This document shows positions 7,070-59,372 of a stretch of 64,000 nucleotides of DNA, in pieces. Position numbers and translations under genes: made by a program. Every line of letters begins with the position of its first letter. Within the stretch, counting starts at the first letter, position 1. The DNA is from Podarcis cretensis (taxonomy: Eukaryota). The DNA lies in NCBI GenBank assembly GCA_951804945.1, contig OX638151.1, positions 64,604,001-64,668,000 of the forward strand. Reading direction: 5' to 3'. The notes below the pieces were generated by a model that ran no database searches, was not told the origin of the DNA, and saw nothing but the letters and a program-made list of their open reading frames with translations.

Positions 7070-7146
7070 TCTGAATTCCTCCAGCAATTTTATTGCTTGT
7101 GATGCCGTCTATTGTATCACAGAGGTGAAGAAATGCTACCTTTAGT
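7070..7146 (-). other. Candidate terminal exon with stop codon and polyadenylation signal
   Basis: Acceptor atatttttctccaacag at 7147-7148. Joining to exon D gives G|AC TAA (stop at 7142-7144). AATAAA lies at 7089-7094 on the minus strand, followed by a GU-rich tract. The 3' end is approximate. Confidence 0.25.
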
Positions 7147-7427
7147 CTGTTGGAGAAAAATATAACGTTCAGGTCCTGTTTGCAGCAGGACAGTTTTATC
7201 ATTATTTTCAATGGGTCTTGCAGTAAGAATGGGGAATCTACTGAGGTCTTGTTCCTAACCATTAAGCTGGCTTTACTGATAGATTATTTATTTATTTTAG
7301 TGGTTTATTGAATTGCACAATGTCATCGTTTCTAAGCAGTGTACAACAAGCATAAAACGTTTACCAGAAAATCAGTTGAAAATAACCATAAGGTCAGGAA
7401 AAAAACTCACTTAAAATGCTACTACCA

Positions 7428-7466
<39 letters not shown>
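7428..7466. repeat. (AAT)n microsatellite
   Basis: Seen directly. Confidence 0.95.
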
Positions 7467-7467
<1 letters not shown>

Positions 7468-9568: not shown

Positions 9569-9614
9569 GGAGCAGGAAGGTGCACATCCTAGTTTCTGCG
9601 GTCAACATGTTGGA

Positions 9615-9907: not shown

Positions 9908-10173
9908 AGAATAAGAAGAAGAAGAAGAAGAGGAGGAGGAGGAGGAGTTTGGATTTGGTATCCCGCCTTTCACTCCCCTTCAGGAGTCTCAAAGTGGCTA
10001 ACATTCTCCTTTCCCTTCCTCCCCCACAACAAACACTCTGTGAGGTGAGTGGGGCTGAGAGACTTCAGAGAAGTGTGACTGGCCCAAGGTCACCCAGCAG
10101 CTGCATGTGGAGGAGCGGAGACGCGAACCCGGTTCCCCAGATTACGAGACTACCGCTCTTAACCACTACACCG
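9908..10173 (-). mobile_element. tRNA-derived SINE (Squam3-like), young, with a (CTC/CTT)n tail
   Basis: The minus strand starts GTGTAGTGGTTAAGAGC..GGGTTCG, carries the core GGGTGACCTTGGGCCAGTCAC, and ends in a microsatellite tail. It interrupts a CR1 3' end. Confidence 0.75.
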
Positions 10174-11349
10174 TACAGACTCATCTTATGTATGTATGGC
10201 AAGTTGTGTTAGGACTGGCGTCCGTGCACGCGTGTGTGCACACACACACACATACAATGGATGAGTTTTTAGGTTTCCATTTTGTTGTTTTCTCTACTTG
10301 GTTTTAATGGCTGTATCATTTTGTAAGTCACTTTGGACAACTTTTCACGAAAAAAGTGACTACTACATGCATATATTATTGCAAATGATGTTGATACCCT
10401 GGGGCCACGGGTTTGTACATTTATTTAAAAGATGAGAACTTAAAGTACTATAACTTGCAGAAGATTTGCTTTGTCTCAAGATTATTCCAGAAGCATCTAC
10501 GTAGGAAAACAAAAGCAAAAGCAAAAGCAAAACAAGCCTCTTGAAAAACAATGGCGATTACATCACTGTGTGGGTCAAATGGGAAATGGAAAACATGGCA
10601 CTGTAATAATGTGAGTCATTCTGTTGCACTCTAACCATTCCTCAGACGCATGGGTTCACTTGCTGACATATGTTTTGTACAATTGCGAAAAGTACAATGC
10701 CAGGGGAGATGTCCTTGCTCATTTGCTCCTGCCAAGATTGACTCTTAACTGATAATTGGGTTCTCCACTTTCCAGGCAAGCTCTCCCTTTTTCACGCAGT
10801 GCCCGTTCATTAATCGAGAGACATAAACCTGTGCAAACCATTTATCTAACTGATTTCCTTATTTGCCTTAACTAAATTGCTCACACAGTTAGTCTCTTTT
10901 TAAAAACTGTAATCACTGGGATGAAAGATGCCAACTTTTTTCTAGGTGGTCTTTAATGCTTTTAACATCTCCACTATAGAGACAAAATTCCTCTATCATG
11001 GCATCTCTTTGCTGAGGAAAGATTCAGCGCCCGAATTTCTGCTTCTCATGCCATTTGTTGAAAGCACAGGAGTCACGATGGAAGAGAAAGAAAGAACGAC
11101 AACTCTGTATAAATAGCACTGCTTCTGCTAAAGGCCTTAGAGCAGAGGCAATTAGAAGGATATGGCATCTCTAGAATGTTGGATTGATGGTACGCTGGCA
11201 CCCAGAAGTTACCCTAGTGACATTTTTCCTGGCATGGAGACAAGAGCTGTGAAAGGAAATTAGGGTACTACAGGTACCCTAATCTCGGTGTGCCAGGCAG
11301 CTGCTAAAAGTACAGGAGCATAGCTAGTGGGAAAAGCGGTATCCATATA

Positions 11350-11591
11350 CAGTGGTACCTCGGGTTAAGTACTTAATTCGTTCCGGAGGTCCGTTCTTAA
11401 CCTGAAACTGTTCTTAACCTCAAGCACCACTTTAGCTAATGGGGCCTCCTGCTGCTGCTGTGCTGCTGGAGCACGATTTCTGTTCTCATCCTGAAGCAAA
11501 GTTCTTAACTTGAAGCACTATTTCTGGGTTAGCGGAGTCTGTAACCTGAATCGTCTGTAACCTGAAGCGTATGTAACCCGAGGTACCACGG
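11350..11591 (+). mobile_element. MITE family A
   Basis: CAGTGGTACCTCGGGTTA TIR, TA flanks, same internal sequence as 576-795. Confidence 0.85.
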
Positions 11592-12578
11592 TAGCATATT
11601 TCAGTCTAACCTATCTCACAGGCTACATTAAACGAGGCTAAAACCTTGTTATGTCTAACCTACCTCACATATGTTAGGTCATGAGGCTAAAACTATACCC
11701 TTGGAGCTGTTAAGAAGAAGCAGGGATGCAAATGAGAAGAAAAACAGTGGATGCATATGTACAGTAGAAGCACATTAACCTGCTTCTCCAAAGAATCATG
11801 GGAATTGCAGTTTGCTAAGGGTACTGGAAATTATAGCATGTGGCAAACTACAAACTGTAAGATCTTGGTGGAATTACAAGTCCCATCAGCCCAAGCAAGG
11901 ATGAGCAGTGGCCAGGGATGTTGGGAGTTGTAGTTCAACAATGTTTGAAGAATCAAATGTCCCCCATACCTGCCATACATAGTTGCTAGGGGAGTTTACT
12001 ACAAACAAACCAGAGACTAGTTGAACAATTGCTATGGGTTCTGTAGAATTGGCTGAAATGATTTTGCCATTCTCTTCCCCGCAACACTTCTGAGCGAGTG
12101 CATGATACTGACAGGGCATGCATTTGTGCAAAGAACAGTAGAACTGTGGGGTCAACCTATTACAGGGTTGAACAAGTGGGTTGCCAATGTACAAAGAAGC
12201 CTTCTCAGAAATTCCCATGCTACACCTTGCCAAGTAGGTGGTTGCCTGATTTACATTTTTTTTAAAGACACGGGAGCTGACAATTACTGAAGACGATTAC
12301 AACCCTAACCCTGTCAGTGAGTAACTAAAATCTTTTGTAATCTGAAGGTGTAACAAGAAATATAGTTCCTTTTAATTTGCAGGTTTAATTCCCCAGCTTT
12401 CCTGAAGGTGGGAAATAAGTTCATAAATGTCACTTTCTTTGTGAAGGAGCTTACTGATATAGAACACACAATCCTGAAATGCAAGATACATTCCCAAATT
12501 CATCTGCCACCCATGAAGGTTTATTGAGCATGATCTTCCTGAAGTAAAAGTCTTAAAAGGTGCTGACTGTACATTTAC

Positions 12579-12748
12579 CAGTATCAGTAAGAAAAGAAAG
12601 ATTATGCAGCAATCCTGATGAGTTCTTCTCATTTCTGACGGGCACTCTTTCTCTGGCCACATATATACTCAAGAATCCGGGAAGCAGAATGGCATCACAG
12701 AGAAGAATATAGCATCTTCTTATCAGACTTGTGTCCTTGAACAAGAAC
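12579..12748 (-). CDS. Candidate exon D (FLFKDTSLIRRCYILLCDAILLPGFLSIYVARERVPVRNEKNSSGLLHNLSFLTDT)
   Basis: 170 nt, open in the frame required by exon C (AG|G = Arg). Donor CTG|GTAAAT; the acceptor (catgttaaag) is weak. Confidence 0.35.
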
Positions 12749-14421
12749 CTTTAACATGTAACAAGTCATTTAACCACACAGTTGCTCCACCTCCTTGATG
12801 GTTGTCACTCTGGGTTCCATGTACCTTGTGAAGACTTCTGACTATGTGGCTATGCTGATTTATTTATTTTATTACATGTATATCTCAGCTTTCTTCCACC
12901 ATGGAACTTGAGGAGGGGGCATACAAGAAAGACTTCTGCCAGGGACTGACTTAGCTTTAGCTGGGTAGTAGCTTCATGTGTCCTTAGAGGCATGCCAAGA
13001 TGTCCCAGGAAGCATTGTCATGATGGTGCGCAGTTTGACAATTTCATAGGTGAACAGAATAATCTTGGTGAGCCTGTTCCCTGACCCCTCCCCCTTCCCC
13101 CCACCACAGTTTTTTTTTAAAGGAATCTGCCTTGATTACTGGAGTTTGAAAAATACCACCATTTCCCAGAGGCTCTTCTGCCTCAAAATTAGTGGGTTAA
13201 TGGCTGCATGAATTACACTCCTGTCAGTATAGTAAACAGTATGCTTATTAGCAAGCATTGTGACAGCGTGGCAACACTCCATGCAGAGATTTAGCTTATA
13301 ATTATGCAGTATTCGATCATGTGGCTCGTAGTGACCTAAATTCCTGTATTAAACAGCCCCATATATTACTTTAATTATGTCCATGAGACAGTTGGCTTTG
13401 CAACTCTCGGTTATAGATTTGGCCGTTTGGAATTGTGTACCATTGTAATGATGTAGTTTTAAAATACCAATATTATCTACTGCAAATCAGAGGTAACATT
13501 ATTCTCAGACCAAATAAAACATTCATGAAAACCCCAGGTTGCCAGCACTACAAAATGATGCCCTTTTATTTATGAACAACACAGATACGGCTAAGTTATC
13601 TCCTAAATATTTCTGGTAATTGAATTATTGGGTTTTAAGGCTACTTCACACATGACATTTTCCCTACATGGCAATCACTTCTGCATCAGACAAACACAGG
13701 ACAAAATGTGGGGATTGGGTGAAGGATGTGAAAGTTTCAGGCAAAGTATTGTTGAATATTTTTTTTTGGATACCATTTCCAATCAGCTTAATGGGCAGCA
13801 CATAAAAAACCTTAAAAGCTAGAATTTAAATGCACACATTTTTATTGTAATAAATGGATTTGTTTCCCATATTGACTCTGCTATTCTGGGCCCAAAATCA
13901 AGCTGTCATTTGTCATCCAGCCTCTCAATAGCTGGGCATGTGCAAGTAAGCCAAAAACATTTAATGCCCTTTTGGCAATTTTGTAAGACTGAGATGGTAT
14001 ACAAATAAATTAACGGTATGTTCCACCTACATTCCAGCTGAGAAATCTAATAATATGACTCAAAAGCATAACTCTGAGTTTTAACAAGGAAACTGCAGTC
14101 CCTGAGATGTGACAAGAGTCTCTAGGACTCTAAAACAGAATTATAACCTTAAAGGATGCTGTTTCGGAGTGTCCATCAATCATTACAGCACAGGCTATTA
14201 GTTCTCCTTCTTCACTTTATGACTCATGTTATCTTCACCTTCTGCACTTCAAAGGAGTCTACATCCATCTCCTGTTGTTTTGCATTTTAATGCCCTCACA
14301 TAATCTAATACACAGCTGTAAAAATAGCCACTGTACATAAGTAAATACAGTAAATCCACACATGTTTGTGGCTGGCAGACATTTTAACCTCTTTGGATTC
14401 ATATTCAGGGAGATTGCTTTA

Positions 14422-14722
14422 AAAAGGTAAAGGACCCCTGACAGTTAAGTCCAGTCGCAGATGACTCTGGGGTTGCGGAGCTCATCTCACTTTATAGGCT
14501 GAGGGAGCCAGCGTTTGTCTGCAGACAGTTTTTCCGGGTCATGTGGCCAGCATGACTAAGCCGCTTCTGGTGCAACGGAACACCGAAACCAGAGCAGTGC
14601 ACGGAAACGCCATTTACCTTCCCACCGGAGCGGTACCTATTCATCTACTTGCACTTTTTTGGAGTGCTTTCTCTCAGCTGCTAGGTTGGCAGGAGCTAGG
14701 ACTGAGCAACGGGAGCTCACGC
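14422..14722 (-). mobile_element. Sauria SINE, 5'-truncated, different or older subfamily
   Basis: AAAGGTAAAGG tail and shared body (CGGAAACGCC-TTTACCTTCCC, CTATT-ATCTACTTGCAC). The head is missing. Confidence 0.85.
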
Positions 14723-15146
14723 CAAAGCTTTAAAACAACACAAATAATGGCTTGGCTGGAGCAGGTACAATGCATATCACAGAGGATGTGCACCCAAATG
14801 CAGAAATAAAAATAAGGTTTGAAGAAAAATTGAGACACCCACTGCTATGTCCATTTCACCTAGCCCAATGGCCATATATTCTCAAAGCTAATCTTGTGCA
14901 TGCGGGAAGTTCCAGCTTCAGTCCCTGGCATCTCCATACAGAGCTGCAGAAAGACCCGTCTGAAACCCAGAAAAAAGCCAAGGCCAACCATGGTTGACAA
15001 CACTGTCCCAGCACTGTCCCAGTTCAGTATAAGGCAGCTTCATATACTCCTATAGTAATCTATTGGTTAGCTGGCTGTAATAAACACTTGACTGACCATA
15101 TTCATATAAATTTACATGGCCAGGTGTGAATAACGCAGTTGGGATA

Positions 15147-15512
15147 AAGGTAAAGGTAAAGGTACCCCTGCCCGTACGGGCCAGTCTTGACAGACTCTGG
15201 GGTTGTGCGCCCATCTCACTTAAGAGGCCAGGGGCCAGCGCTGTCCGGAGACACTTCCGGGTCACGTGGCCAGCGTGACATCGCTGCTCTGGCGAGCCAG
15301 AGCCGCACACGGAAACGCCGTTTACCTTCCCGCTGGTAAGCGGTCCCTATTTATCTACTTGCACCCGGAGGTGCTTTCGAACTGCTAGGTTGGCAGGCGC
15401 TGGGACCGAGCAGCGGGAGCGCACCCTGCCGCAGGGATTCGAACCGCTGACCTTTCGATCGGCAAGTCCTAGGCGCTGAGGCTTTTAACCCACAGCGCCA
15501 TCTGCGCCCCTA
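15147..15512 (-). mobile_element. Sauria SINE, full length, young
   Basis: tRNA-like head with B-box GGTTCGAATCC and (ACCTTT)n tail. 12-bp TSD GCAGTTGGGATA at 15135-15146 and 15513-15524. Confidence 0.92.
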
Positions 15513-15583
15513 GCAGTTGGGATAGCCATAAGCCAAACAAGAGCCTCTAAAATTGTTGGGACTTGTTTTTTACTCCCTCAAAT

Positions 15584-15871
15584 TGTTTTGTTGTTTCTTT
15601 GTTTAGTCGTGTCCGACTCTTCATGACCCCATGGACCAGAGCACACCAGGCACTCCTGTCTTCCACTGCCTCTCACAGTTTGGTCAAACTCATGCTGGTA
15701 GCTTCAAGAACACTGTCCAACCATCTCGTCCTCTGTCGCCCCCTTCTCCTTGTGCCCTCCATCTTTCCCAACATCAGGGTCTTTTCCAGGGAGTCTTCTC
15801 TTCTCATGAGGTGGCCAAAGCATTGGAGCCTCAGCTTCACGATCTGTCCTTCCAGTGAGCACTCAGGGCTA
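15584..15871 (-). mobile_element. BovB/RTE-clade LINE, 3' fragment
   Basis: Minus frame encodes SLEGQIVKLRLQCFGHLMRREDSLEKTLMLGKMEGTRRRGRQRTRWLD, typical of the RTE/BovB ORF C-terminus. CAA-like tail. TSD ACTCCCTC(A/T)AAT at 15572-15583 and 15872-15883. Confidence 0.9.
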
Positions 15872-17208
15872 ACTCCCTCTAATACTGAACTCAAACGGGC
15901 CATGCCGACAATTTGGAAAGCAAAATGGTTCTACCACTAAGAAGTAAAAGGATCTGCATGTTCAGATGAATCCTGAGATGTTTAGAACCAGTTGTCATAT
16001 TCTATGACTGCCAGATGGGGCAGCATTTGTGATAGCTGGTAGCTCTGCTATTGTGTTGCAAGCCAAAGCTAACACACCTTTTTCATTATTATTTACCTTT
16101 ATGACATAACATTTTTTTTCATAGCGTGTAAGTCTCAAGTGTTCTGTACATTCTTTGATTGCACAGCAGTAAAGTCTGATACAGGCACTGGAGGTTGCTG
16201 GCATGCCTTGACCAACATAAACAAGAGATAATAAACAAAGCCTGGTGTTCTTGTAAGATATTGTAAGGGCAAGCTGACCGCAAAGTGCATCTTTCACCTT
16301 TCGTCCAATTATTTGTTTGCCACCCTTTACAAACATAATCTTCGAAGCTCAACATGCCGTTCCTTTTTCTGGAATTCCAGAGCAGAATTCTTCACATTCT
16401 TCCTGAAATTTTAGTTAAGGCTTGCATTCCTCACTTAGCAAGGTTACATCATGTTGCCTTTTGCAGTCTGGCATTCAGTGCTGAACCCTTCCATTCTTAT
16501 AGGGTAGGTTTTAAAAGCAGCACATTCATTCCAAGGAGAAAACAGTACACACACAAAATGTTTCATGTTACCTAACAGGCATTCTGAAATGAGTGGTGCC
16601 TGGAGGTAAGTCTTTAGAAATCACTGCTTAATAGTGCATTAGTGGCAGATTTATACTAGTGGCAATCTACACATCATTCCACTTTATTCGTTTTTCTGTG
16701 ATGCTTCCCTGATGCTACTGCATCGGTGCTGTTGCATTATAGTGCAGCCAAAGTGGGGTCACACACACACACACACACACACACAGCAATCCCAGAACAT
16801 TTGTGGCATGCAAAATTACAGGATTTCAGCTGGAAGCCACTGGATGTGCATTAACTGGAAGTGAAGCAGCATGTGCTCTCCAAAACTTTTTCAGGCACAA
16901 GGAGTAATGAAAGTGGGATTGCCTATATGCACCTCAGTACCATCATGAGCACAAATAACCATGAATGCTCAGTAAGAAGACTGGGGCCCTTATTCACAGA
17001 CAGAAGTCACCACTGGATGCTGCAGTCATGCTCAAACATGTGATATGTGAACCTGCCCTAAGATTAAGCACTCCATATATAACTGAAACCAAATGGAATA
17101 TGGTAAGATGTTATAGTCTAAAGCACTGTAACCAGCAGATTTCTATACTACATGACAAACAGTTTCATTGTTTCTGTAGCTGTGGTTGCTAAAAACAGGA
17201 ATCCGTAC

Positions 17209-17681: not shown

Positions 17682-17683
17682 GA

Positions 17684-23017: not shown

Positions 23018-23768
23018 TTTTTTTAATATATTTTTATTAATTTTCCAATACAAAACAAACATCTTATTTGTCACCAACATCCTCTTCTTTGACTTCCCTC
23101 AGCCTTTCTGATGATTCTCCGTTCTATTACTTCTCCCACATTTCTTACTTAATATTGCACTACCTTGATATCTTATTTATCCCTTATTTTTTAAACAATA
23201 TTTCTACCTTACATTTTCACAGAACTTCCTGAAAACCTACAAACGTTATTTGATCATCACATAGTATTTGCATATACTCTGTAAATTTAGTCCAGTCTTC
23301 AGTGAATCTCTGGTCACGTCGATTCCGGATCCTTCCTGTTAGTTTATCAAGTTCCGCGTAGTCTGTCAATTTCATTCTCCATTCTTCAATCATAGGCAAT
23401 TCCTCTTGTTTCCATTTTTGGGCCAACAATATTCTTGCTGCTGTTACTGCGTATAAAAACAACTTCCATTCTTTCTTATTAACATCATTTCCTATTATTC
23501 CTAGTAAAAATGCTTCTGGTTTCTTAGTAAATGCATATTTCAACATTTTTTTCATCTCATTGTATATCATCTCCCAAAAGCTTTTTACTTTTTTACATTC
23601 CCACCACATATGGTAAAATGTTCCTTCTTTTTCTTTACATTTCCAATATTTATTACTTACTTTATACATCTTTGCTAACTTCACTGGTGTAACATACCAT
23701 CTATACATCATCTTCATCACATTTTCTTTTATTGTGGTACATGCAGTGAATTTCATTCCTTCCTTCCA
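23018..23768 (-). mobile_element. L1-clade (L1/Tx1) LINE, 5'-truncated: ORF2 C-terminal zinc-finger region plus 3' UTR
   Basis: 184-aa ORF with WKCKEKEGTFYHMWWECKKVKSFW and AARILLAQKWK. A-rich tail. 20-bp duplication CAATATTTG(A/G)CCAGTATCTA at 22998-23017 and 23769-23788. Confidence 0.88.
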
Positions 23769-24034
23769 CAATATTTGGCCAGTATCTAACAGGTGACATG
23801 GCGCATTTTACATTGTGTATTAAAATACACAATGAAACAATCCCATTATATAGATGTTCATTAAGATAAACAATAAAACAATATATATTTCATAAATATA
23901 AAGTATAAAACTATATTTGATAATATTTCAAACCTGTGATGCAGCAGATATCAACATCTCAGAATATCAGGCACGCAACACACAATATTTAACAGTATTT
24001 AATGTTATGTGTTTTGAGGGTTCTTTTTGCACCA

Positions 24035-25893: not shown

Positions 25894-27178
25894 TACATAT
25901 ATTTAGCAGAGTAAAAAAATGAAAAACTTTGGAAGCTGGAGCTAACCCACCACTCATCATTTATCTCATTCAAACATCACTAGTGTTGCTCAAAAAGGTA
26001 AAATAAATTCTACAGGAGGCACACTGGTAAAGAAACAAAGGTTCTTTACTCACAGCTACTTGTATACTTCACATCAGCCCTGGAGGTCTGGCAACCCTAA
26101 TGGTGAGTCCTGCAGAAACCTGACTTGTTACCAAGCTAGGGCCAGGGGCAATACCATGGGGATTCCTTCAAACTCTATGGATCCTGCCCAATGTCATCTC
26201 CCGCCAAGGAGTGGCAAACCTGGATTTCTCAATCAAACACCAAAATGTGTTCTGTAAATTCAGGGTCTGTGGGTGTATGAGAAGTTGATTCTTTTAATTG
26301 AAAAGAACAAAAATAGAAGAAATAAAACTACTGGTGATCACATCCGGCTGTTTGTCCCCCCCCTGAAATATACTCCCCTAAGGGGCAAGCAAAAAAGCCC
26401 CTTGGTGGCTGTGTAGAAAATGTACGTAATTCCGTCTTTCATTCCTAATGACATTGCCACCATTAGATTCAACTAACTCTGCTGTAATTAAAGGGTTTAT
26501 TTTGTTACTTCCAAAAGCTCTCCCTAATTACATAGTGCTTGTAAAATACTGCTGTTTGGATATTAGCATGCTTTTAAAAGATAAAGTAAAGTAGAGAGGA
26601 GGGTCCTCTCCAGTGGTTTGATTTTTCTTTATACCATGTAATTCCTTTCTTCCAGTGTATTCCAATGAAACAGCATCTATATACGGCACTGAGCATTCAC
26701 CTTGATTTTCTGGCAGGGTATTTATATGTCTCCCCATTAATCATTTATTCATTCAACACTTTTCAATGCATTCAGAGCTGTGGGTTTCTGGTGCTAGAGT
26801 GACAGAGTGCTTTAATCACTTTAATTGCGCAAACTTAAATTTCCCAGAGTTCCCTGGAAAGAGGGATTGGTTGTTAAACTACTCTGTGAATTGTAGCTCT
26901 CTGGGAGAAATAGGCTTGTCCTAACATCCTCAGCACCCATAACAAACTGCAGTTGCCAGGATTCTTTGAGAGAAGCCATGACTGTTTAAAGTGGCATGAT
27001 ACCGCTATAAATGTATAGTGCAGATGACAACTTATTGGGGTAGATCATGTGAAGTGTTTCATATCAGAAGCACATTTCTGGGCGGGGATGTTTTACATGC
27101 ACAGCTGCATAGATGTGATAAATGACGGCTTCCATGTGCAACTGCCACCATACGGAGCAAAGTACCAGAAGATCCCAC

Positions 27179-27275
27179 CTCTTGCCCCTGGCATCCTTTG
27201 CCTTAATGTTAAATGATTCAATTATTTTCTTCGGTCCTGGTTTTGTCTTGTCAGCCTGGTGTTGCATCACATAAT
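27179..27275 (-). CDS. Candidate exon C (YVMQHQADKTKPGPKKIIESFNIKAKDARGK)
   Basis: Acceptor gtttgttctttcag, donor GAG|GTGGGA. 97 nt, purine-rich. The only open frame runs phase 1 to phase 2, matching exons B and D. Confidence 0.45.
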
Positions 27276-27973
27276 CTGAAAGAACAAACAGCGATCAAAA
27301 CAGTTCCCCAAAAGCTTCAAACCCACTGATATTTTTTCCTGCCTCCTGCTTTCTAGTGATCCTGCCATATGCTGAAGACTTGTATGCCAATTTGAACCAG
27401 ATGCTAAAAAGAAACAGGCTTCTCTCCCTCTGATTTTCAGATTCAAACGTTCCCCAGCCAGTCTGGCATGACTCATTCGCACAGCAGAACCACCTTCCAT
27501 GCTCTTCTGTTTATGAAAGCTGTTAACCACAGTGGGAAAGAGAGAAGTCATGAATATAATTAATGTCTTTGTATAATACCAAAATTTTAGGTTGCTCCCC
27601 TCTCCCTGCTCCCCTCTCACACAGCAATAAACAGTTATGGTAGAGTAATAAGGAAGTGGTAGCCTGTGACACATACAAATCAGCCTACGCTACAACAGCT
27701 AACAACTCTTTGTTCTCTCTGATGTCATGAGCTTGGATTCCCAGCTAGGGATTTTCTGACTAAGCCATATAAATTCACAATGTGCTTCTCTGGATTTTCT
27801 CACAGTCGTGGGTAGATGGGTGACGCAACACATTTTTCATTCTGTAGCACATTAATGGGGTGCTGCCTAGCAGTGGTGCAAAAAACATTACCTCAAATGA
27901 CCACCTATGCTCGATCGTACATACACAGGCGAATTTCCCTCCTCTCACAGTCTCTATATCGTCTTATCAAGTG

Positions 27974-27974
<1 letters not shown>

Positions 27975-28016
<42 letters not shown>
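27975..28016. repeat. (ATT)n microsatellite
   Basis: Seen directly. Confidence 0.95.
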
Positions 28017-28018
<2 letters not shown>

Positions 28019-29304
28019 ATTGTCTTTTAGTTCTGAACGTGAACTCTATTTTATTTTAATTGCACTGTAGACCAAAATTGGCATCCATATATTACTGCAT
28101 CAAAATGCTATTGGGGTGAGTAAGACACTTTCCTATGCACAACCCTATTTGGTTGTTATCAGTGAAAATTATCTCACCTTTCCTATCCATGAAAGCATCA
28201 GTAGAGCAGGCATCTCCACCAAACTGGAGTCCTTGCTTCCACAGAGAAGATGTGTGGATCTGTCACTCTTGCTCATGATTATCATATTGCTCATAGATTT
28301 CATATCATATTTTCTCATAGATTTTAAAATCTGCAACATTGTTCTAGGGGTGGGGAGGGAAAATAACCCAAATCACTAGAATGAAATCTGTATTTGAAAA
28401 TTAGCAGAGCATATGTTAAAAGCTGTAGAGTACACGATCACTGCTTTCTACAGTATATCTCTCAGATGTTCAGAGAGGCAGATGGCTTGAAGGAGAACAT
28501 GTAGTTATCATTTCTGCTCTGACACAATGTGGTAGTGTGCCATTTGTCTTCTTCAAGTAACTGCGTCCAACAGGTAGAGAATGAGATGAGAGCAACTTAA
28601 GATCATGAGAAGAAGAAAAACCTTGACTAAACCATTGCAATACTTAAATTATTCCCAACAGAGTGCCAGAATTCTATTCAGCCATTTTGTTTGTCCTGAG
28701 TACTAGCTGAGATCACTTTTCTAAATGATTCTACAAAATGCTTTTTAGTGATGAGTGGGTGTTAATGATTGCTGTTAATGTAGCATAGAAAGTAGAAGGG
28801 GGCTGTTTTTAACAGGAATTTACATTTTAGTCAATGTAGTTTATTTGCAAGTGAATTTAAGGTGTGTGGTTTTTTTAAATCCAGTTTGATGTAACTTATA
28901 AAAATGGCCCTCAGTTACTTTGGTGGGTGTTGTCCACCCACAGATACTGAAGTGATCTTTTCATTTTGTGATACATAGATAAATCACAAATGTTCTGGTC
29001 TTAGACATGGTTTAACATGGACAACACTGGAACAGAAAACTAGTTATTTGAATTCATCCTAAGATGCATAGATGCCTGCTGCATATTTACCTTTGTAGCC
29101 ATCCTCCTCTCAGTCTCTCTGTCCTGATCCTCTGTTCAGAATCACAGCATCCCAAGACTGCTTTTTTGTGATTTGCATTTGAGTGTAATGAGTAGTTTGC
29201 TCCCCCATCAGATACAGGAAAGTACAATTACAGCAGCACCACCATAAAATTCACATAAAATATGGGAAAACCCAATCTTCTCAGCTAACCAAAGCAACCC
29301 AATA

Positions 29305-29431: not shown

Positions 29432-30130
29432 TTATTATTTGTACCCCGTCCATCTGGCTGGGTTTCCCCAGCCACTCTGGGCGGCTTCCATAAAAACCAA
29501 AAATACACTAAAATATCACAGATTAAAAACTTCCCTGAACAGGGCTGCCTTAAGATGTCTTCTGAATGTCAGGTAGTTATTTATCGCTTTGACATCTGAT
29601 GGGAGGGCGTTCCACAGGGCAGGCACCACGACCGAGAAGGCCCTCTGCCTGGTTCCCTGTAGCTTTGCTTCTCGCAATGAAGGAACCGCCAGAAGGCCCT
29701 CGGCGCTAGACCTCAGCGTCCGGGCAGAACGATGGGGGTGGAGACGCTCCTTCAGGTATACTGGGCCGAGGCCGTTTAGGGCTTTAAAGGTCAACACCAG
29801 CACTTTGAATTGTGCTCGGAAACGTACTGGGAGCCAATGTAGGTCTTTCAAGACCGGTGTTATGTGGTCTCGGCGGCTGCCCCCAGTCACCAGTCTAGCT
29901 GCTGCATTCTGGATTAGTTGTAGTTTCCGAGTCACCTTCAAAGGTAGCCCCACGTAGAGCGCATTGCAGTAGTTAAGAACTTTGCTTCAGGATGAGAACA
30001 GAAATCGTGCTCCAGCGGCGTGGCAGCAGCAGGAGGCCCCATTAGCTAAAGTGGTGCTTGAGTTAAGAACAGTTTCTGGTTAAGAACGGACCTCCGGAAC
30101 GAATTAAGTACTTAACCCGAGGTACCACTG
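29305..30130 (-). mobile_element. MITE family A, split by an L2-clade LINE
   Basis: The halves 29305-29391 and 29972-30130 rejoin into a complete inverted copy with TA flanks. Confidence 0.85.
29392..29971 (-). mobile_element. L2-clade LINE 3' fragment, inserted inside a MITE
   Basis: ORF LQLIQNAAARLVTG..RDHITPVLKDLHWLPVRFRAQFKVLVLTFKALNGLGP is typical of L2-clade ORF2 C-termini. Ends in a (TTA)n tail. Confidence 0.9.
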
Positions 30131-32451: not shown

Positions 32452-33187
32452 TACTACTACTACTAATAATAATTTATTATTTGTACCCCGCCCATCTGGC
32501 TGGGTTTCCCCAGCCACTCTGAGCGGCTTCCAACAAAGATGAAAAATACACTAAAATGTCACATATTAAAAACTTCCCTGAACAGGGCTGCCTTCAGATG
32601 TCTTCTGAATGTCAGGTAGTTGTTTATCGCTTTGACATCTGATGGGAGGGCATTCCACAGGGTGGGCGCCACTACCGAGAAGGCCCTCTGCCTGGTTCCC
32701 TGTAACTTGGCCTCTCGCAGTGAGGGAACCGCCAGAAGGCCCTCGGGGCTGGACCTCAGTGTCCGGGCAGAACGATGGGGGAGGAGACGCTCCTTCAGAT
32801 ATACTGGACCGAGGCCATTTAGGGCTTTAAAGGTCAGCACCAACACTTTGAATTGTGCTCGGAAACCTACTGGGAGCCAATGTAGGTCTTTCAAGACCGG
32901 TGTTATATGGTCTTGGCGGCCGCTCCCAGTCACCAGTCTAGCTGCCGCATTCTGGATTAGTTGTAGTTTCCGGGTCACCTTCAAAGGTAGCCCCACGTAG
33001 AGCGCATTGCAGTAGTCCAAGCGGGAGATAACCAGAGCATGTACCACTCTGGCGAGACAGTCTGCAGGCAGATAGGGTCTCAGCCTACGTACCAGATGGA
33101 GCTGGTAAACAGCTGCCCTGGATACAGATTTGACCTGTGCCTCCATGGACAGCTGTGAGTCCAAAATTACTCCCAGGCTGCGCACCT
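32452..33187 (-). mobile_element. L2-clade LINE 3' fragment
   Basis: 208-aa open ORF (RSLGVILDSQLSM..VISRLDYCNALYVGLP..LHWLP), highly similar to the 29.4-kb copy, with the same 3' UTR. Confidence 0.9.
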
Positions 33188-35139: not shown

Positions 35140-35381
35140 CAGTGGTACCTCTGGTTAAGTACTTAATTCATTCCAGAGGTCCATTCTTAACCTGAAACTG
35201 TTCTTAACCTGAAGCACCACTTTAGCTAATGGGGCCTCCTGCTGCTGCCACGCCGCCGGAGCACGATTTCTGTTCTCATCCTGAAGCAAAGTTCTTAACC
35301 TGAAGCACTATTTCTGGGTTAGTCGAGTCTGTAACCTGAAGCATATGTAACCTGAAGTGTATGTAACCCGAGGTACCATTG
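35140..35381 (+). mobile_element. MITE family A
   Basis: TIRs, TA flanks and shared internal sequence. Confidence 0.85.
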
Positions 35382-39579: not shown

Positions 39580-40420
39580 TGTGATTGTTTGAGGTTGGAG
39601 GATGGATGGTGGTTAATGGACTGAAGTTGAATCCCGACAATGCAGAAGTACACTGTTTTGGGGGCACAGGGGGCAGGCAGGTGTGGGGGAATCTCTGGTC
39701 CTGAATGCGGTAACTGTGCCCCTGAAGGACCAGGTGCACAGCCTGGGAGTCATTTTGGGCTCACAGCTGTCCATGGAGGCGCAGGTCAATTCTGTGTTCA
39801 GGGCGGCTGTCTACCAGCTACATCTGGTACACAGACTGAGACCCTACCTGCCCACAGACTGTCTCATCAGAGTGGTGCTTGCTCTGGTTATCTCCTGCTT
39901 GGACTACAGCAGTGCACTCTATGTGGGGCTACTTTTGAAGGTAACTCAGAAACTACAACTAAAGCAGAATGCAGCAGGTAGACTGGTAACGGAGTGGCTG
40001 CTGGGACCATATAACACCAGTCCTAAAGGAACTTCACTGGCTCCCAGTACATTTCCGAGCACAATTCAAAGTGTTGATGCTGACCTTTAAAGCCCTAAAC
40101 AGCCTCGGCCCATTATACCTGAAGAAGTGTTTCCACCCCCATCGTTCTGCCCAGACACTGAGGTCCAGCTCTGAGGGCCTTCTGGCGGTTCCCTCAGAAG
40201 TGAGGTTACTGGGAACCAGGCAGAGGGCCTTCTCGGTAGTGGCACCTGCTCTGTGGAACGCCCTCCCATGAGATGTCAAGGAGATAAAGAACTACACAAC
40301 TTCTAGAATACATCTGAAGGCAGCCCTGAATCAGGAAATTTTTAATGTGTTATGTTTTTTATGTTTTTATATTCTGCTGGAAGCTGCCCAGGTGGGCGGG
40401 GTAATAAGAATAAGAATAAT
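39580..40420 (+). mobile_element. L2-clade LINE 3' fragment, older and frameshifted
   Basis: Same family as the 29.4-kb and 32.5-kb copies, with its frame split across ORFs 39683-40090 and 40071-40271. It interrupts a SINE. Confidence 0.88.
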
Positions 40421-42756: not shown

Positions 42757-43493
42757 GAAAGTTTGAATGAACTGGGGGGGGGGGATCTTACGCATCTCTG
42801 AAGCATAAGGCAACAGTCAACTGGTTGGCAGCCAAGTGCTACCAGGTTCATGACTGTAACCTAGCATAATCGTGGGGGTTATTGCTGATTATTGTTCATT
42901 TTGTGTAGTTATATGTGATGAATTGTTTTAATGTGTGTTTACGCTGCCCTACAATCAGTTAGTATGGGGCAGGTCAGAAATAGCTTATTTAATTAATTAG
43001 AAACATGCCAGGGCGCTTTAGTCAATTCCGTTTTCTGGACCAGTAGTATGCTACTTACTTTGCTGCATTTATACTTTATATTGGGTCGTGGGTGAAGAAC
43101 CTCTGGTGGAGGGTCTGTTGGCATGGGCCATGAGGCCCAGAAAGGCAAGCAGGCAAAGTAAACTAAAGTATCTTTGAGGGACGTAGTGCTAGCAAGAACA
43201 AGCTGGTGAATCCCTGGTGCTGGGGAACAATGGAGGCAGAGAGCTATCACTCTCAAGTCCTGCTTGTGGGCTGGCTGTCCAGAGGCATCATTTATCTGTT
43301 TGGATTTATAGCTGAAGCTACTGTCAAATCTAACATGAGTCTTCTGGAATATCATGGGATGTAAGCAGTAATCTAGCAGGCAGCACTAAGGAGAGGCTTG
43401 AAATGGCCAGATCATCCTTTGCAAAAAAGTTGGGATTGGAATGTTAAAAAAAGGGAAATAGCTCTTATTGGTATCTGGATGTTTACACCTATA

Positions 43494-43714
43494 CAGTGGT
43501 ACCTCGGGTTAAGAACTTATTCTGAAGATCCGTTCTTAATCTGAAACTGTTCTTAACCTGAGGTACCACTTTAGCTAATGGGGCCTCCTGCTGCCGCCAC
43601 GCAATTTCTGTTCTCATCCTGACGCAAAGTTCTTAATCCAAGATACTATTTCTGGGTTAGTTGAGTCTGTAACCTGAAGCGTCTGTAACCTGAAGCATAC
43701 TCGAGGTACCACTG
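43494..43714 (+). mobile_element. MITE family A
   Basis: TIRs, TA flanks and shared internal sequence. Confidence 0.85.
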
Positions 43715-44880
43715 TATGTAGATAAAACCATTGTTTCACATCGATAATAAATGCTTCATAGATTCCTTAAAGGCTTGAAAATAATGTTTTACCATTCCAA
43801 GTTTATTCTAGCAGCTTACTGATATCACACCATCTGAGTGCTCAGTGTAACAGAGAAACAATCAAATGAGTCTTTGATGTACATACTTTTTGTAAAATGC
43901 AGTTATAGCTTAATTTTAAGTTTCAAAGCCGTTCTTATTCTTTCTTTCTTAAACAGTTCTTTTTCCCATGAAAAAACCAACCCAACCCATAATTTTTGGT
44001 TGGGAAGCTTTCAATTGCTCTAGTTAGAAAAGTGTGCCTTACTTCCCTCAGGGCACAAAGATTCTCTCCTAATGGGTAGACAATGAGTGCTCTTGATGAA
44101 AAACTGAGCAAAACTCAAACAAAAACCAGCTATCTTTTTCTTTAAAAAAACACTAATCTGTCTTTTAGAGGGAGCTGGCAAGGAGGAGGGAGGATACACA
44201 CTTGCAAAGCTTGTTAAAAGATTTATTACTCCATGCTGGATGTCAGTCCATTTTAAGAGTGTTTATAAAATATTAATCAAAATGAGAGAATTAGCGATTC
44301 AAAGAATAATTATATGAAACAGACTCCAGGATCTTCCCGCAATGTGTGACCCAATTATTTGCTGAATTTCAAGAAAGCTGTCTTCCTGAGATCTGGTGTG
44401 GCTTTCAGTGTCATTTAAGATCTTTCTCAGTGGAAATATCCAGATCTTTTTATTACCATACTTTATCTCTTTTTTGTGTGATAGAAGAGCAGCTGGTGGA
44501 GGGAAGAGAATGGCAATCTGGTGCAGAAAATTTTTTGGAAGGGAAATGGGGTGCTTATGTGTCCTACTTTACAGAGGATGGTCCTCTTTTTGAAGGATTC
44601 CAGAAGGATTGCCTGATCCAAACATGAGTTAGAAAGATAAAGAACCATAAGAAGGGAGAACAGGGACCTTGAATCTGCCTGTCAGCTGCACCCCAACAGC
44701 ATACTGAGGATGTACACAGGAAGAGGCGGGTTTAGGGCATCACGGCTGGTTCTGCTGCACAGGGTGTCGAGCCTAGGGGGCACTGCGGGGTATCCAAACG
44801 ATGACGTAGTGAATTTAGCAGAATGGAAAGCGAAAGGTGGGGTGCTGGCAGTGAATTATGGCCTCACAGCATGTGTCTGG

Positions 44881-44938: not shown

Positions 44939-45047
44939 TAACACTTGGGCTTAGTTTGCAATTGTGCAACCTCATTTTTAATTTGATGTTGTGGTCCTGA
45001 TGGGATGAGGCACTGATTGCTCCAAATGAAGGCTTAGCCACACTTAC

Positions 45048-45118
45048 TTTCAAGCTCCATGTCTAAGCACCCTTCCTTTCGCCCTGGAGTTTTCCCCGTG
45101 AAAACCTGCTCTTTAAAG
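45048..45118 (-). CDS. Candidate exon B (FKEQVFTGKTPGRKEGCLDMELE)
   Basis: Acceptor ctttttctcttcag and donor AAA|GTAAGT are both near consensus. 71 nt, phase 2 to phase 1, open frame. Confidence 0.45.
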
Positions 45119-46453
45119 CTGAAGAGAAAAAGCAGCAATTTGGGTCTTCCCTGGATTGTTGCTTGCTCTGATTCAGCGGTAAAGAGCAGGGTTTGTGAGG
45201 AAAGCTCTGGAGCAAAAACAACAACAACAACAACAACAAAAACAACAACAACCAACAAAAACAGTGCTCCAATATGCAGCTTGAAAGTGTGGACCATGTC
45301 TGGAAAGCGCAGTGGATAAGTAAGTGTGGATAAGCTCTCATCCTGTGTGATATCCAGAAAAAACAACACATGATACAGTTAAACCCTACGAGGAAATAAT
45401 CACACCCCAAGTGCTGGATTGTCTCCCCTGCTTCCCACATAACTGAGCATATGGAATACTTGCTCAATCATCTTTGCTTGATGAGGGCAACAGAGTGAAG
45501 CCTTTTAGGGCCTTTCTAAAACCACCCAGTGAAAAGAATTAACAACCGCCTATCACTCTGTTAGCATTTTAAGGGAAGGGGAAATTAAATATAGTAAGTT
45601 CAGCATTGCCATTTAATTCTTAGAAACATGTTGTTTAATAATATGAAAGCACATTTCGGCTTCTCTATCCTCTTTATGGTTATTCCCAGTGGCATGCTTT
45701 CTGTTCTGAATAATTCATCGCATTTTTTAGCCTGCGTCGTGCATAACCCAAAATTGCAAAACTTACCAAACTCAATTTAAAGTTTTTCACCTTAAGCCAC
45801 ACATTTCATAAATAATGTATTTTCTTCTAATATGCATGTTCCCATGGATTGCAAATAGCCTAGATGCCATCCCTTGATACTATTTATTTTCACATGAAAG
45901 GCAGGAAAAAAGATGAATATGTTCTTTTAGCAGCTCATAACTTTCCAAAATATATTACACCAGTATAATATCTTGCACTGACATTTTATGTTACAATTGT
46001 TGTACAGTATAACAAAAATATCGGAGAAACATGTTGTAAGCCTTCCTATTTGTGAAGCTCTTGATAAGCATAATTAACTGTAACATTAGGTGCCTAATTC
46101 ACCATGAGTCCTGTGTTATAGTGCTCAGGGCTATGAGCTTGTACTGCAAAATACTGGTCCTGTAAACATCAAAGTATATAGACGTTTGAATTGGCTTGCT
46201 TTTTGGCCCAGTATGGAGAGAGATATAAAACTTGAAATGTAAAGTGTAAACAAGACTTGTAATACTTGCTGCCATAATTTTTATAAAATGATGCAAGCAG
46301 GAGACTGGGACACAGAAACTTCACCAAACAGGGAAGCCATGAGAGTGTTAAAAGTGGCACCATATCATTATTTATTGCATTCATACCCTACTTTTCCTCC
46401 AATTTGCTCAGGGTGATGCACATGGTTCCAGTCCTGCTCCACATTGTAATCCC

Positions 46454-51410: not shown

Positions 51411-51411
<1 letters not shown>

Positions 51412-51468
<57 letters not shown>
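51412..51468. repeat. (CA)n microsatellite
   Basis: Seen directly. Other short arrays: (AAAT)n ~3770, (AT)n ~5575, ~24040 and ~41970, (AAC)n ~45216. Confidence 0.95.
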
Positions 51469-51471
<3 letters not shown>

Positions 51472-53901: not shown

Positions 53902-56467
53902 GTAAGCCATAAATTCCAGTTACATAATTTCAGGATAATGATTTTTTAATCACTGTGGAATGTAATTCATTTGAGGAACTTGTACAGATCTTCAGGACTG
54001 GCAAGAAGTTACATTAATTTTAACATATTCATTTATAAAGCATTATTTATTGCACTTGAGAGGGCTTTGGAGACTATAAAAATAAAATAACTTGAGCAAA
54101 GGAAAATGCAAAGTCCATTTCAACAAAAAGTCCTTCTCAAGTCATTGATGTCTCTTAATTCCTTGGGATGTTTCCCCCTCCAGGTTCCAATTGGTTATTT
54201 TGTATGTAGTTGCAAACCTGTATTAGTATAAAATAGATACAATTTGGGTCTCTTTATTTGTGGCATTTTTATAACTAAGACATCACAAGTTAGTTAAAGA
54301 TGTCAGAACAGCATGAAACATTTGGAAAGGAGGTAGCTTTCCATCATTTTGGGACTATGTCACTGGGAATGTGACCTAGTCATCAAAAATCATAATTACA
54401 ATATGTGATGCTTGCCTTCATTGCGAATTTTTCCAGTATACTTTGGAAGAGAAGGAGACCTTCAGTACCGCAATGGTTTTTGTTTTGGGCTTTTTTATAC
54501 ATGGGATGCTGTCCAAACTTGCACAGTCAACAAAGCTTGGAAAGGGATTATGAGAATTAATCTCTTCGTACAAATTTGGTTCTGCCGTTTAACCTTTCGG
54601 AATTTGAAACACAGTGCAAAATAAGATGTGGCTTCACATGAGGCCTCGATACTTCCTTCGCTACATAGTTGTATTGAATTCGGTTGTGTTTTGTCTTAAG
54701 TCATTTGTAGTGTTGGGAGGGAGAAGAAACAGTAAGCAGTGGAAACTTGGCAACGCTTCTTACTGATATCAGTTCCTTTCCGAGACTTTCTGTTCTTACT
54801 TCCCTCGCAGGTGGCATTCCTAATTGGAGCTAGTAACTCTTAGCTGTGCTGTTTTAAAGATGAAGTAGCAGAAACACCTCAGGCAGAGCACAGGCAGAAC
54901 AAGATGAATGTTAGATTGAAAAAGTTCACTTCCAGGAGACGAAGGATCCGCCTCCACATGAAAAAGGTCTCAGAATGTTTGCCCTTAATGTGCTGCTGTT
55001 GGCAAGCACCCTATTCATAAGGTTGATCGTCTTTCAGCCTTCTGCCCTATTCTGCATTTTGGCAAGTCTCAAGTGGAATGTAGGGCAAGATGAGTCTCAG
55101 GCTAGGCTCTAGAAGACACAGAGCTCTGAAGTTGCTTCAGCCAGGGGAGGAAAAAAGCTGAAACTGAGCTCTTATATAGCAGCAGGTGCTGCCTGATTGT
55201 TAGCACCACCTGTGCTGCAAGATGATTATTAGATTAAAGGGGCTCAGCCTCCCTCAGTAGTTTCCTACTGTGATGGAGAAGGGGAGGCTCAGGAAGTTAA
55301 CAGGCAGCCATTGAAGTACTTTTAGGCCTGGCAATATATGACCTGAATGAACAGTGCTATCGAAACTCTGCCCACTGTATTTTGCACTAACTGAAGTTTC
55401 CAGAGTGCACTACATATTGCACCAGTCCAGATGAGAAGTCACCAGAGCATGGATAACTGTGGGTGCTACTGCAGCAATGTTCAGGCCATTAGAAACCATG
55501 GGAGATGTGCTTCCTGTGGTCCATGACACCTGGATGTTACAATCTAGGGTCTAATGGAAGCCCTGCCACAAACCTTCCTCTATTGCTGCTACCACCAGGT
55601 ATGTTTTGGTACACCTTCTGATAACTTAACTGGAAGCACAGTGGAGTCTGAATTTTGGAATGGGCTAGGGTTGAATGAAACCAAATCATTTTTGTCTGAG
55701 CACATTTTGAAAAGGGCAAGGGAAACACGTTCCTTGTTAGATCAGAACAAGGGAAAGTATAAACATATCTAGAATGAGCTTGATTGCAGATGTCTGCCAG
55801 AAAACAGGAGCCATAGCAGCAAAAACTTTCAAGTAGCATTGTCTCACCTGGGGAAGGAAAACCGTTTTCATACATGTATGGACTCTTCCTGCCTTCCCTG
55901 GCTCTTCTCTAGTTTAACCAGGCTGCTCTCTGGCAAAGAGCCACTCTCCCTTTCTCTCCATCAGTGACAGACAGGGTACTGCTGGGGTCATTGTGGTTGG
56001 TAGCCAGATCCAGAGCTGGGTGGGGGTTTCCATCCAAGTGACCTATCTGTTGCTGGAATTGGGAATCTGAGCTAGAATCATGTAGGAAGAAGAATCTGCC
56101 CTGTTGAGCATGCAAGGGCTGGATTCTTGGTGCTTATCCAGAGGTTTCATTCTGTTTCACAGGGAAAAACAGAATGCCAGCCAATCATGCTCCTGTCCAT
56201 GCCTCAAGAGGGCTCTGAGGCATCACAATCTAACGTGCTCTTTAGGCTTCAGTCCATGAGGTTTTATTTCAAGCCCAAAGTCCCTGAGAGTTGGAGAAGA
56301 GCCCATGGAAGGTGGAATTTAACATTTTCATGGTCCCAAGCCCTTTTCTACCTTCTGCTAGATTTTTCTTCTTCAGTGTGAGATTTTCAAATGTTTTTCA
56401 TATAACCTGAGCTTTCTCAGAGGCCTTTCAAGGAATTCTGAATTAGGAGATTAGTAATAGCAGGCAT

Positions 56468-56826
56468 GTGGGACGCAGGTGGCGCTGTGGGTTAAAGCCT
56501 CAGCGCCTAGGACTTGCCGATCGAAAGGTCGGCGGTTCGAATCCCTGCGGCGGGGTGCGCTCCCGCTGCTCGGTCCCAGCGCCTGCCAACCTAGCAGTTC
56601 GAAAGCACCTCCGGGTGCAAGTAGATAAATAGGGACCGCTTACCAGCGGGAAGGTAAACGGCGTTTCCGTGTGCGGCTCTGGCTCGCCAGAGCAGCAATG
56701 TCACGCTGGCCACGTGACCCGGAAGTGTCTCCGGACAGCGCTGGCCCCTGGCCTCTTAAGTGAGATGGGCGCACAACCCCAGAGTCTGTCAAGACTGGCC
56801 CGTACGGGCAGGGGTACCTTTACCTT
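56468..56826 (+). mobile_element. Sauria SINE, full length, young
   Basis: Near-identical to 15147-15512. 13-bp TSD TAATAGCAGGCAT at 56455-56467 and 56827-56839. Confidence 0.92.
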
Positions 56827-59271
56827 TAATAGCAGGCATCAAGTGAATCCTTACTGATCCACCCAAAACAAACCCAGTGGTTGGGGTGGTGGTAGTGAGG
56901 ATGCCCCATGGCACGCTCTTTGTTCATGCAGAATGACCTAAGAGGCCTGGCTAATGCCCTGCATCCACTCTAGAATATGACCCCCAAATCCTCTCATGTG
57001 AAGACTCCATGGCAGACCAGTCGATGGGGCTCCTTCAAGGCTGGAAGTCTGAAGAACAGACAGAAGGAGATCTAAAAAGCAATTCATTTGGGCTGGTAGG
57101 TTGTTATGGAAATTCTGTTGCCTGGTGGGGTGAGTGGTAGAAGGGCTTAGTTAATTAGTTTCCTTTTTCTTGTCAGCGTATGACCTTTATAGGAAAACCA
57201 TCTGATTGTGGAAAAAGTGCCTGTCATTATGAATATCTCTCTTTTATAATTTTTCCTTTGCTTTCTCTGTGCCAGGGTTATTTATCACTTTTGCCTCCAG
57301 AGTCGTGGGCTGACAATATTTTTAAAGACTCCTATATTATTGTAGTTGCTTAAATCACTCCATTCCTGCAAGGAGCTCAGGATTATTTAGCTCAAGGAGC
57401 TATACACGGGCCTCCGTTCCTAATTTTACCCTCACAACAACCCTGCGAGCAAGGTAGGTTCAGCTAAGAGAAAGTGACTGGCCCAAGGTCACCCAGTGAG
57501 CTTTATGGCTGAAGTCTGAACTCTGGTCTTTGAAGTCATAGTCCAACACTCTATAACCATTATGCAAAGTTCTTCTCATTCCTCCTATTGTCCTCACTGG
57601 AGCCCAAAAGGACCCAGAGTGCTTCATGGCTGAGTGGGAGATCTGAAGCACTCTCAGTCCAAATCTGACAATAGACCACACTGGCTCTCTGTGCAGGAGT
57701 TTAATATCTCCGGTTTCGACCATGCAAATAATAAAGCTCTCTCAAATTCTTTTCCCCCTGCATGATCTCTGTCCTGCCAATCTAATATAAATCCTGGAAT
57801 GGATTAGCTAGTAATTACATTCAGGTCATCCTGGAACATTTGTGTAGATCAAGGAATGGATCTGTCACAACTGTTAAACATAAAACAGCTACTGCAAGAC
57901 AGTATTGGAAATATATGCCGCTGATATTGATATTAATGGCTTGTTAGAGCCACAGCACTTCCATGTTTCTTTTTAAAAAGTGATTGTGCCATTGTGCCCT
58001 ATGGAGCCCAATAATTTCAATGTCAATTGAAGCTGCTCAGTTCTTGTCAATTGTATCTCTTTGGCTATGTCCTCTTCCTCACATGTTTCTGACTGTATAC
58101 CACCAAGTGATGAATGCAGACATCCTGAGGTGGAACCAGAACCATCATGTGCACAGCCTCTTGAGACTACCAGTTAGATACATTTCCCCAATAGTACATA
58201 GGTTATAAGCTTATCACCTTCAACCCTCACCTCAACTCCATCCCAAGAAGCATTCTTCAAAGAATAAAGATTTTTCTAAACCTAACTCAGTCTAAATTTG
58301 GGACAAAGAACTATTAATACTTGTTATATCCCCAAAAATACTTTCATCCTGTTTGTCTGTCTATCTACCTAGATCTTTAGCTGAAAAGGCTCCACGTAAT
58401 GATCTTCCCTGCCACTCAGCTTACAATTTAAAAGACATACAAGAAAATAGGAATGGAGAGGAAGGAAGGAAAACGAAAGCTCAGATACTAGATCTTAAAG
58501 CCACAGCTCTTGTAACCATCAGCTGGGTTGGAAATAGTACAGGGAGTATGATCGAGTACTTACTGCTAGGTAACAGCTGAGAGAGGCAGCTTTGGCAATA
58601 TAATAGCTCTGCTTCTCTGGTCTGCAGCCTGATGGAATGGCTGCTGCCAGATGCCAGCTGAAGGAAGGCCAAAGGCCTGTCAGCAGAGGTAACAGAATAG
58701 CCCTAGTTCTCTTCTCTCTCTCTTTCTCTCTTTCCCTCCCTCCCTCCCTCCCTCCCTCCCTCCCTCTTTCTCTCTCTGCTCTGCAGCCTGATACATGTCC
58801 ATTGCTTAGATTACATGCAGCACAATTCTAGGCACCTTTACGCAAAGTCCCAGTGTGCCAAGTATGTAAGCATAAAAATGTTGCCTATATTTGAATTTAC
58901 AGCAGAAGATGTGCAACCGGTCTTCGAATGGGATTCCCTGATAAGCTTTATCCAGTCCGTGGCTCCATCACAAGGCATTGGCTACTCCACGCCACCATCA
59001 GTGGGAATCAGCTTACCAGTAATTTGGGCTGCATTGTGCCCCATCTTTGTGTGAACACGCACACATCACACACACACACACACCAATTACTTCCTGATGG
59101 ACCTCTCTCTGGGTAAAAAAACCCAGTATGATATTTTGATCACCAAATTCCCGCTTCCTCTCCAAACCAATTAAGTTATAAATTGCCAATTGAGTCGCAT
59201 TGCAAAAGTACACAAGTGCAGAAAATGTTGCTTTAATTTTATTTCCCCCATGCCTTCCGTGCATATCTTAC

Positions 59272-59372
59272 CTAATGTTTTGTATTATGGTTATAATGAT
59301 TACAATGCGAATGGAGGGTTGCATTGATTCTCTGATTCCGTGTTCTCCCCCCACTGCTCCTTTCATAATAGC
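59272..59372 (-). CDS. Candidate exon A of an unidentified minus-strand transcript (AIMKGAVGGEHGIRESMQPSIRIVIIITIIQNI)
   Basis: Strong donor AG|GTAAGA and weak acceptor (cattgtacag). The 101-nt frame is open and ends in phase 2, matching the start phase of exon 45048-45118. No recognised homology. Confidence 0.25.

Follow-up and report, generated by a model that had tools for sequence, protein, structure and literature searches.

Splice sites derived from transposable elements (TEs) are common in long non-coding RNAs (lncRNAs), according to the excerpted text of Kapusta et al. 2013 (PMC3636048), and LINC01010 is given as an lncRNA of 1508 nt in the excerpt of PMC8620790. The locus analyzed in this work lies in a 64,000-nt stretch of Podarcis cretensis DNA (assembly GCA_951804945.1, contig OX638151.1, positions 64,604,001 to 64,668,000 of the forward strand; G000:C3:64604001-64668000), referred to throughout as the window and numbered from its first letter, within a genome of 1.51 Gb in 51 contigs. 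An original prediction made from the letters of the window had joined five minus-strand segments, labelled A to E here from upstream to downstream of the proposed gene (Table 1), into a spliced frame, and had offered an orphan protein gene, the 3' part of a large-intron gene or an lncRNA as its source. A heuristic exon scan places the window in the intergenic space between an aldehyde dehydrogenase (ALDH) gene and SGK1, and minus-strand RNA from it is spliced in a close relative. We consider it likely that a minus-strand RNA is transcribed and spliced at this locus, probably a weakly expressed and alternatively spliced intergenic lncRNA, and that the five-exon, 147-codon frame is a chance chain without a selected protein.

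Spliced RNA in a close relative

The search for sequencing runs listed none recorded as RNA, and the data consisted of four putative RNA runs (X1 to X4) of one organism from one study, each matching 12-16% of the words searched, whose contigs were aligned to positions 27000-28600; contigs drop rare forms. The organism is approximately 2-4% diverged from the window sequence; the differences described below are among those listed, with a further 22 rows of differences beyond them. Two joints were found in X3, in which a single donor at 28178 is spliced to acceptors at 27275 and 27519 (introns in Table 1), and all three sites are intact in the P. cretensis window. The donor belongs to an exon that the original prediction missed, here called C', which had been ranked first of 104 minus-strand candidate exons (12.1 + 10.3 bits) before any reads were compared. 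The acceptor of segment C is thus real in the relative, but its observed partner is the donor of C' and not segment B. On the exon side of 27519 there is cover by X1 and X3 contigs, whereas the intron 27520-28177 has none from these two runs. The two GT-AG joints show, in the relative, the transcription and splicing expected of an lncRNA, and C' (166 nt as predicted) together with at least 97 nt of the downstream exon would exceed 200 nt, a length not contained within any single contig. Positions 28269-28324 within C' form a short tandem repeat with many small indels and substitutions in X4, a pattern that fits an unconstrained exon.

Downstream of the junctions, an X1 contig spans 27000-27507 and extends approximately 150 nt past 27000, an X2 contig does alike, and contigs of both runs pass across the proposed donor of segment C at 27179, which is consistent with a long downstream exon. 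We did not accept a common contig end near 26850 as evidence for the end of the transcript, because the position is within a local repeat (26830-27028), which may explain why the contigs end there. No loose ends at 27179 or 27275 leading towards B or D were found in the four runs, a weak negative given the loss of rare forms from contigs.

Neither observed splice form carries a long frame: both contain stops in each of the three frames, and the splice of C' to C therefore brings no long upstream frame into C. The frame of C itself is lost in the relative. X1, X2 and X3 show a 1-nt insertion behind 27238. The same extra base appears in loose ends of X2 and X4, interpreted here as a second allele, and is thus present in four of four runs; read by hand, it leads to a stop after seven further codons, about midway along the proposed protein. 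A substitution at 27191 (X1, X2), likewise read by hand, is non-synonymous (Ala to Val). Within C one contig carries 4 letter differences and 1 gap in 86 nt, and contigs that are mostly flanking carry 7 differences and 1 gap in 371 nt, and 5 and 1 in 360 nt. Frame conservation in related lizards, proposed as a check on the gene, accordingly failed for this relative in C, the segment compared. With stops in three frames and a frameshift in the relative, the part of the RNA observed has no long or conserved frame.

For the preferred lncRNA, RNA polymerase II would begin transcription in the SGK1 upstream region, at some point upstream of 28343 that is probably an enhancer or a repeat, and would run away from SGK1. 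The spliceosome would take the strong sites that it meets, with alternative acceptors, and the downstream exon would continue past 27179. If the short frames are unselected, as seems probable, the source of any effect would be the RNA itself or its transcription. Of the explanations first offered, the lncRNA is the one that is supported: a spliced minus-strand RNA exists in the relative, with an exon structure different from that proposed, namely donor 28178 with acceptors 27275 and 27519.

Several observations weigh against this interpretation, and some of them favor an alternative that we hold to be unlikely though credible, that this species lacks a stable gene here and the RNA reflects background transcription or enhancer RNA of the SGK1 upstream region with incidental cryptic splicing, or that the locus is transcribed only in the relative. 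The joints occur in one of four runs, which are putatively RNA and come from one study of another species, at depths of 2 and 3, and contigs of X2 and X4 cover the intron, so that these runs contain DNA or pre-mRNA, and unspliced molecules may account for the read-through at 27179; both the sparse joints and the unspliced cover suit background transcription. Of the five proposed segments, the stretch compared (27000-28600) took in C alone, and a short Met-initiated frame remains after the last stop of C'-C in this genome. Two further points come from the five-segment frame described below: the count of high-scoring minus-strand chains exceeds all 12 controls (maximum 5,113), as would also be expected of a real gene, and the codon score lies between coding and null values, with little power on 143 codons. 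Background transcription would additionally fit the many small indels of X4 within C' and a proposed 5' end near which no CpG-island promoter was found, the three hits in the window overlapping repeats. It accounts poorly for two distinct canonical junctions that share one strong donor, for X1 and X3 cover that takes in the exon side of 27519 without the intron, and for the preservation of all three splice sites in this genome.

The five-segment frame

Much of the five-segment model was read correctly. AG precedes each of the five segments and GT follows A to D, the phases fit at every junction, the segment translations match those given originally, and joining by coordinates gives 147 codons in agreement with the stated product of about 147 aa, with the first Met at codon 3. 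The AATAAA said to lie about 50 nt past the stop starts 50 nt after the stop's first base. Splice sites were scored in bits with an approximate matrix, and on this scale the acceptors of A and D, already described as weak, fall below those of all 18 real neighboring exons (minimum 6.7, median 9.8); the acceptor score of D is attained by 17.8% of all AGs. Segments listed as single copy in Table 1 were so in an own-genome search that skipped very common words.

Chains of the proposed kind were counted by combining four open-frame exons of 60-200 nt with a terminal exon containing a stop and AATAAA, at thresholds of at least 2.3 bits for acceptors and at least 7.0 bits for donors, with introns of at least 1 kb and matched phases; stops formed at junctions were ignored. 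The minus strand of the window held 46,550 phase-consistent chains, of which 9,637 reached the summed splice score of the proposed model (70.9 bits), and the best reached 89.8 bits. The plus strand held 2,708 chains (404 at 70.9 bits or above), and chains at or above this score numbered 286-5,113 in five order-5 Markov resamples and 26-2,789 in six flanking strand controls. AATAAA occurs within 100 nt downstream of 9.4% of minus-strand positions. Since thousands of chains are as good, the phase agreement is no evidence for a gene, and the caution first attached to the model, that choosing exons by eye inflates such agreement, was justified. The minus-strand excess may fit a real transcription unit, of which it is a weak hint. 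Repeat masks used for this count and for the exon scan were incomplete, as the self-BLAST mask missed the repeat that contains segment B.

All of segment B lies within a dispersed palindromic element, contrary to the claim that no segment falls in a repeat. The element is short, non-coding and bounded by inverted ends, has nested inverted arms, and has copies spread over many chromosomes. B has 42 other genomic matches at 76-89% identity (40 scored of 326 candidates). Among the 16 of the 42 copies that were compared, all from the upper ranks, the AG is kept in 15 and a GT at the donor position in 9; their length is 70-76 nt, and the length class and the open frame are both kept in one of 16. 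With B inside a repeat whose copies rarely keep the frame, its peptide is a reading of the repeat. Alignment of arm to arm indicated that one arm lacks 33 nt found in the other, which leaves a consensus donor at the end of B. From its sequence B is plausible as an exonised repeat, and as such it is the likeliest of A, B, D and E to be included in RNA. No clear target-site duplication was seen in the flanks of 45026-45341.

Homology searches gave no sign of a protein family. Pfam returned no family for the four coding segments and none for five strong candidate exons of the window, C' among them, a PDB sequence search returned nothing for B, and Pumilio, which came up as a PDB match of C, was rejected (E 1.7). 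Searches for homologues gave 5 candidates for C with its flanks and 9 for D, none of which scored, and the best ESM Atlas score for D was 0.76, inside the span that shuffled sequences give. Among 1.84 billion cluster representatives there was a sole match, at E 5e-8, to P0001, a tandem-repeat protein of 3,237 aa. Its score is the sum of 24 stretches, none above 3.2 bits, and the match was rejected as a repeat artefact. As a positive control, a 52-residue reading, 23 residues of which are coding sequence from the SGK1 distal exon, retrieved 76 vertebrate and unnamed proteins; this exon is very conserved, so the control speaks for vertebrate coverage and not for sensitivity to fast-evolving proteins. 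The suggested peptide search thus found no vertebrate homologue of C or D where the control matched. Rfam gave no matches over positions 1-33900 and 34300-64000. The codon score per codon was -0.069 for the model, +0.084 for the 18 real neighboring exons and -0.145 (sd 0.15) for a null set of 3,005 candidates.

These results bear on two protein-coding alternatives. One, an ancient and conserved vertebrate protein gene that has gone unrecognized and to which the segments would belong as exons, is largely refuted and has a negligible probability: it has in its favor only the fit of the phases and the strength of the splice sites in B and C, and it is opposed by the frameshift in a species 2-4% diverged, by the repeat origin of B and by the lack of any homologue for C or D, or of a Pfam or PDB match, under conditions in which 23 residues of SGK1 find 76 proteins. 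For the same reasons (B a repeat fragment, C frameshifted, no homologue despite a working control) the orphan protein gene first suggested was not upheld. The other alternative, which we regard as very improbable, is a young protein gene arising de novo in the lizard lineage, in which an lncRNA upstream of SGK1 exonised a miniature inverted-repeat transposable element (MITE) whose donor came from the 33-nt internal loss, a one-base loss in C opened the 147-codon frame, and A-B-C-D-E is translated. The fit of all junction phases, the real acceptor of C and the very strong sites of B, with a donor formed by the loss in this copy, agree with such an origin, as does the extra base in both alleles of the relative, by which the open frame may be derived. 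It is opposed by the thousands of such chains that chance provides, by an acceptor of D far weaker than that of any of the 18 real exons, by C' as the observed partner of the acceptor of C (with B joined to it, C' would be read in a frame closed after five codons) and, weakly, by the missing loose ends at C.

Neighboring genes and other features

Genes were located by a heuristic exon scan covering 200 kb on either side of the window, with positions in window coordinates (Table 1). Exons of the ALDH gene, which by gene order we take to be ALDH8A1, stop approximately 79 kb left of the window start, and the SGK1 distal exon lies approximately 94 kb right of the window end. Minus-strand RNA in the window heads away from SGK1, and the nearest minus-strand coding gene found was MYB, approximately 190 kb off and past two plus-strand genes. 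This arrangement leaves no minus-strand coding gene to which the segments could belong, which speaks against the suggestion that they form the 3' part of a large-intron gene; a distant untranslated region of MYB was rejected as their source because two plus-strand genes lie in between. To our knowledge the human SGK1-ALDH8A1 interval holds only lncRNAs such as LINC01010.

Table 1. Coordinates of the features discussed, in window positions
Feature	Position	Strand	Details
Exon C'	28178..28343, 166 nt	minus	donor 28178 used in X3; acceptor 28343 predicted; single copy
Intron	27276..28177, 902 nt	minus	GT-AG (CT..AC on plus); X3 joint 27275/28178, depth 2, 1 of 4 runs
Intron	27520..28177, 658 nt	minus	GT-AG (CT..AC on plus); X3 joint 27519/28178, depth 3, 1 of 4 runs
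Probable long downstream exon, possibly terminal	26749..27519	minus	contig cover; candidate poly(A) hexamers 26825, 26816, 26749
Segment A	59272-59372, 101 nt	minus	unsupported candidate exon; single copy; acceptor 6.0, donor 9.3 bits; codon score -5.3; no Pfam match
Segment B	45048-45118, 71 nt	minus	acceptor 12.7, donor 8.8 bits; inside repeat 45026-45341
Segment C	27179-27275, 97 nt	minus	acceptor 9.3, donor 7.9 bits; single copy; acceptor used in relative
Segment D	12579-12748, 170 nt	minus	unsupported; single copy; acceptor 2.3, donor 7.1 bits; codon score -9.1
Segment E	7070..7146	minus	terminal, stop and AATAAA at 7094; unsupported; single copy; acceptor 7.5 bits
Palindromic MITE-like interspersed repeat	45026..45341, ~316 bp	.	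own-genome matches, nested inverted arms
MYB exons	-198 to -190 kb	minus	exon scan
HBS1L	-132 to -101 kb	plus	exon scan
Aldehyde dehydrogenase gene	-89 to -79 kb	plus	exon scan
SGK1 distal first exon	L011:3664-3819, +157.7 kb	plus	exon scan and protein matches
SGK1 kinase exons	+226 to +231 kb	plus	exon scan

The distal first exon of SGK1 lies approximately 69 kb upstream of the kinase exons, and many databases treat the 5' exons of this gene as an 'uncharacterized protein' of its own. At L025:856-1064 (+) and L026:482-745 and 1372-1443 (+), 39-50 kb left of the window and downstream of the ALDH gene, there are exon-like segments whose codon use resembles that of coding sequence; they gave no Pfam match, and no long frame was found around the L025 pair. 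Long endonuclease- and reverse-transcriptase-like frames lie 47 kb right of the window (L006:6823-8502, +) and presumably belong to an element resembling a long interspersed nuclear element (LINE).

Within the window, the strongest exon-like segment is at 9984-10044 on the plus strand (acceptor 13.1, donor 11.5 bits) and may belong to an opposite-strand transcript. Strong minus-strand candidate exons at 44174-44043, 43219-43059 and 41607-41405, between B and C', have no Pfam match and could be exons of the lncRNA upstream of C'. At 29516-29986, 32559-33185, 39617-40090 and 23217-23807, open frames of 156-208 codons are taken, from their peptide motifs, to be 3' fragments of LINE-like retroelements. 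High-copy repeats resembling short interspersed nuclear elements were identified by self-BLAST of the 464-kb region at 562-808, 11342-11594, 35129-35389, 43488-43723, 14416-14724, 15137-15878 and 56466-56831. Two N-masked stretches of the window both lie outside all five segments.

Comparison with known systems

The repeat that contains B resembles miniature inverted-repeat elements in its size of approximately 316 bp, its nested inverted arms, its lack of a coding frame and its dispersal at 76-89% identity, and differs from them in the absence of a clear target-site duplication in its flanks. The proposed frame has features of de novo genes born from lncRNAs, being lineage-restricted and including an exon derived from a repeat and an indel that is a candidate enabling change; it differs from them in that its spliced form, translation and selection are hypothetical. 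A de novo gene, if true, would matter more than an lncRNA, as both enabling mutations would be identifiable.

If the lncRNA interpretation is right, the locus would add one more lowly expressed lncRNA to the gene-poor interval upstream of SGK1, which would be useful for annotation, and it would be of modest interest if mammalian lncRNAs of this interval proved to be its counterparts by position. The count of chains is also a warning, in that phase-consistent exon chains arise by the thousands in 64 kb of intergenic DNA. LINC01010, which we take to lie in the human SGK1-ALDH8A1 interval on 6q23 and to be transcribed away from SGK1, would offer a positional analogy only, if that placement is right; orthology is not claimed. 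Its position next to SGK1 was not found in the excerpts of the literature searched, including PMC5115837 and PMC8620790. Relative to vertebrate long intergenic non-coding RNAs with exonised TEs, as described in the excerpted text of PMC3636048, the repeat segment B at this locus differs in being a candidate exon only, and the locus resembles them in its intergenic position, canonical splicing, low contig depth, alternative acceptors and lack of a conserved frame.

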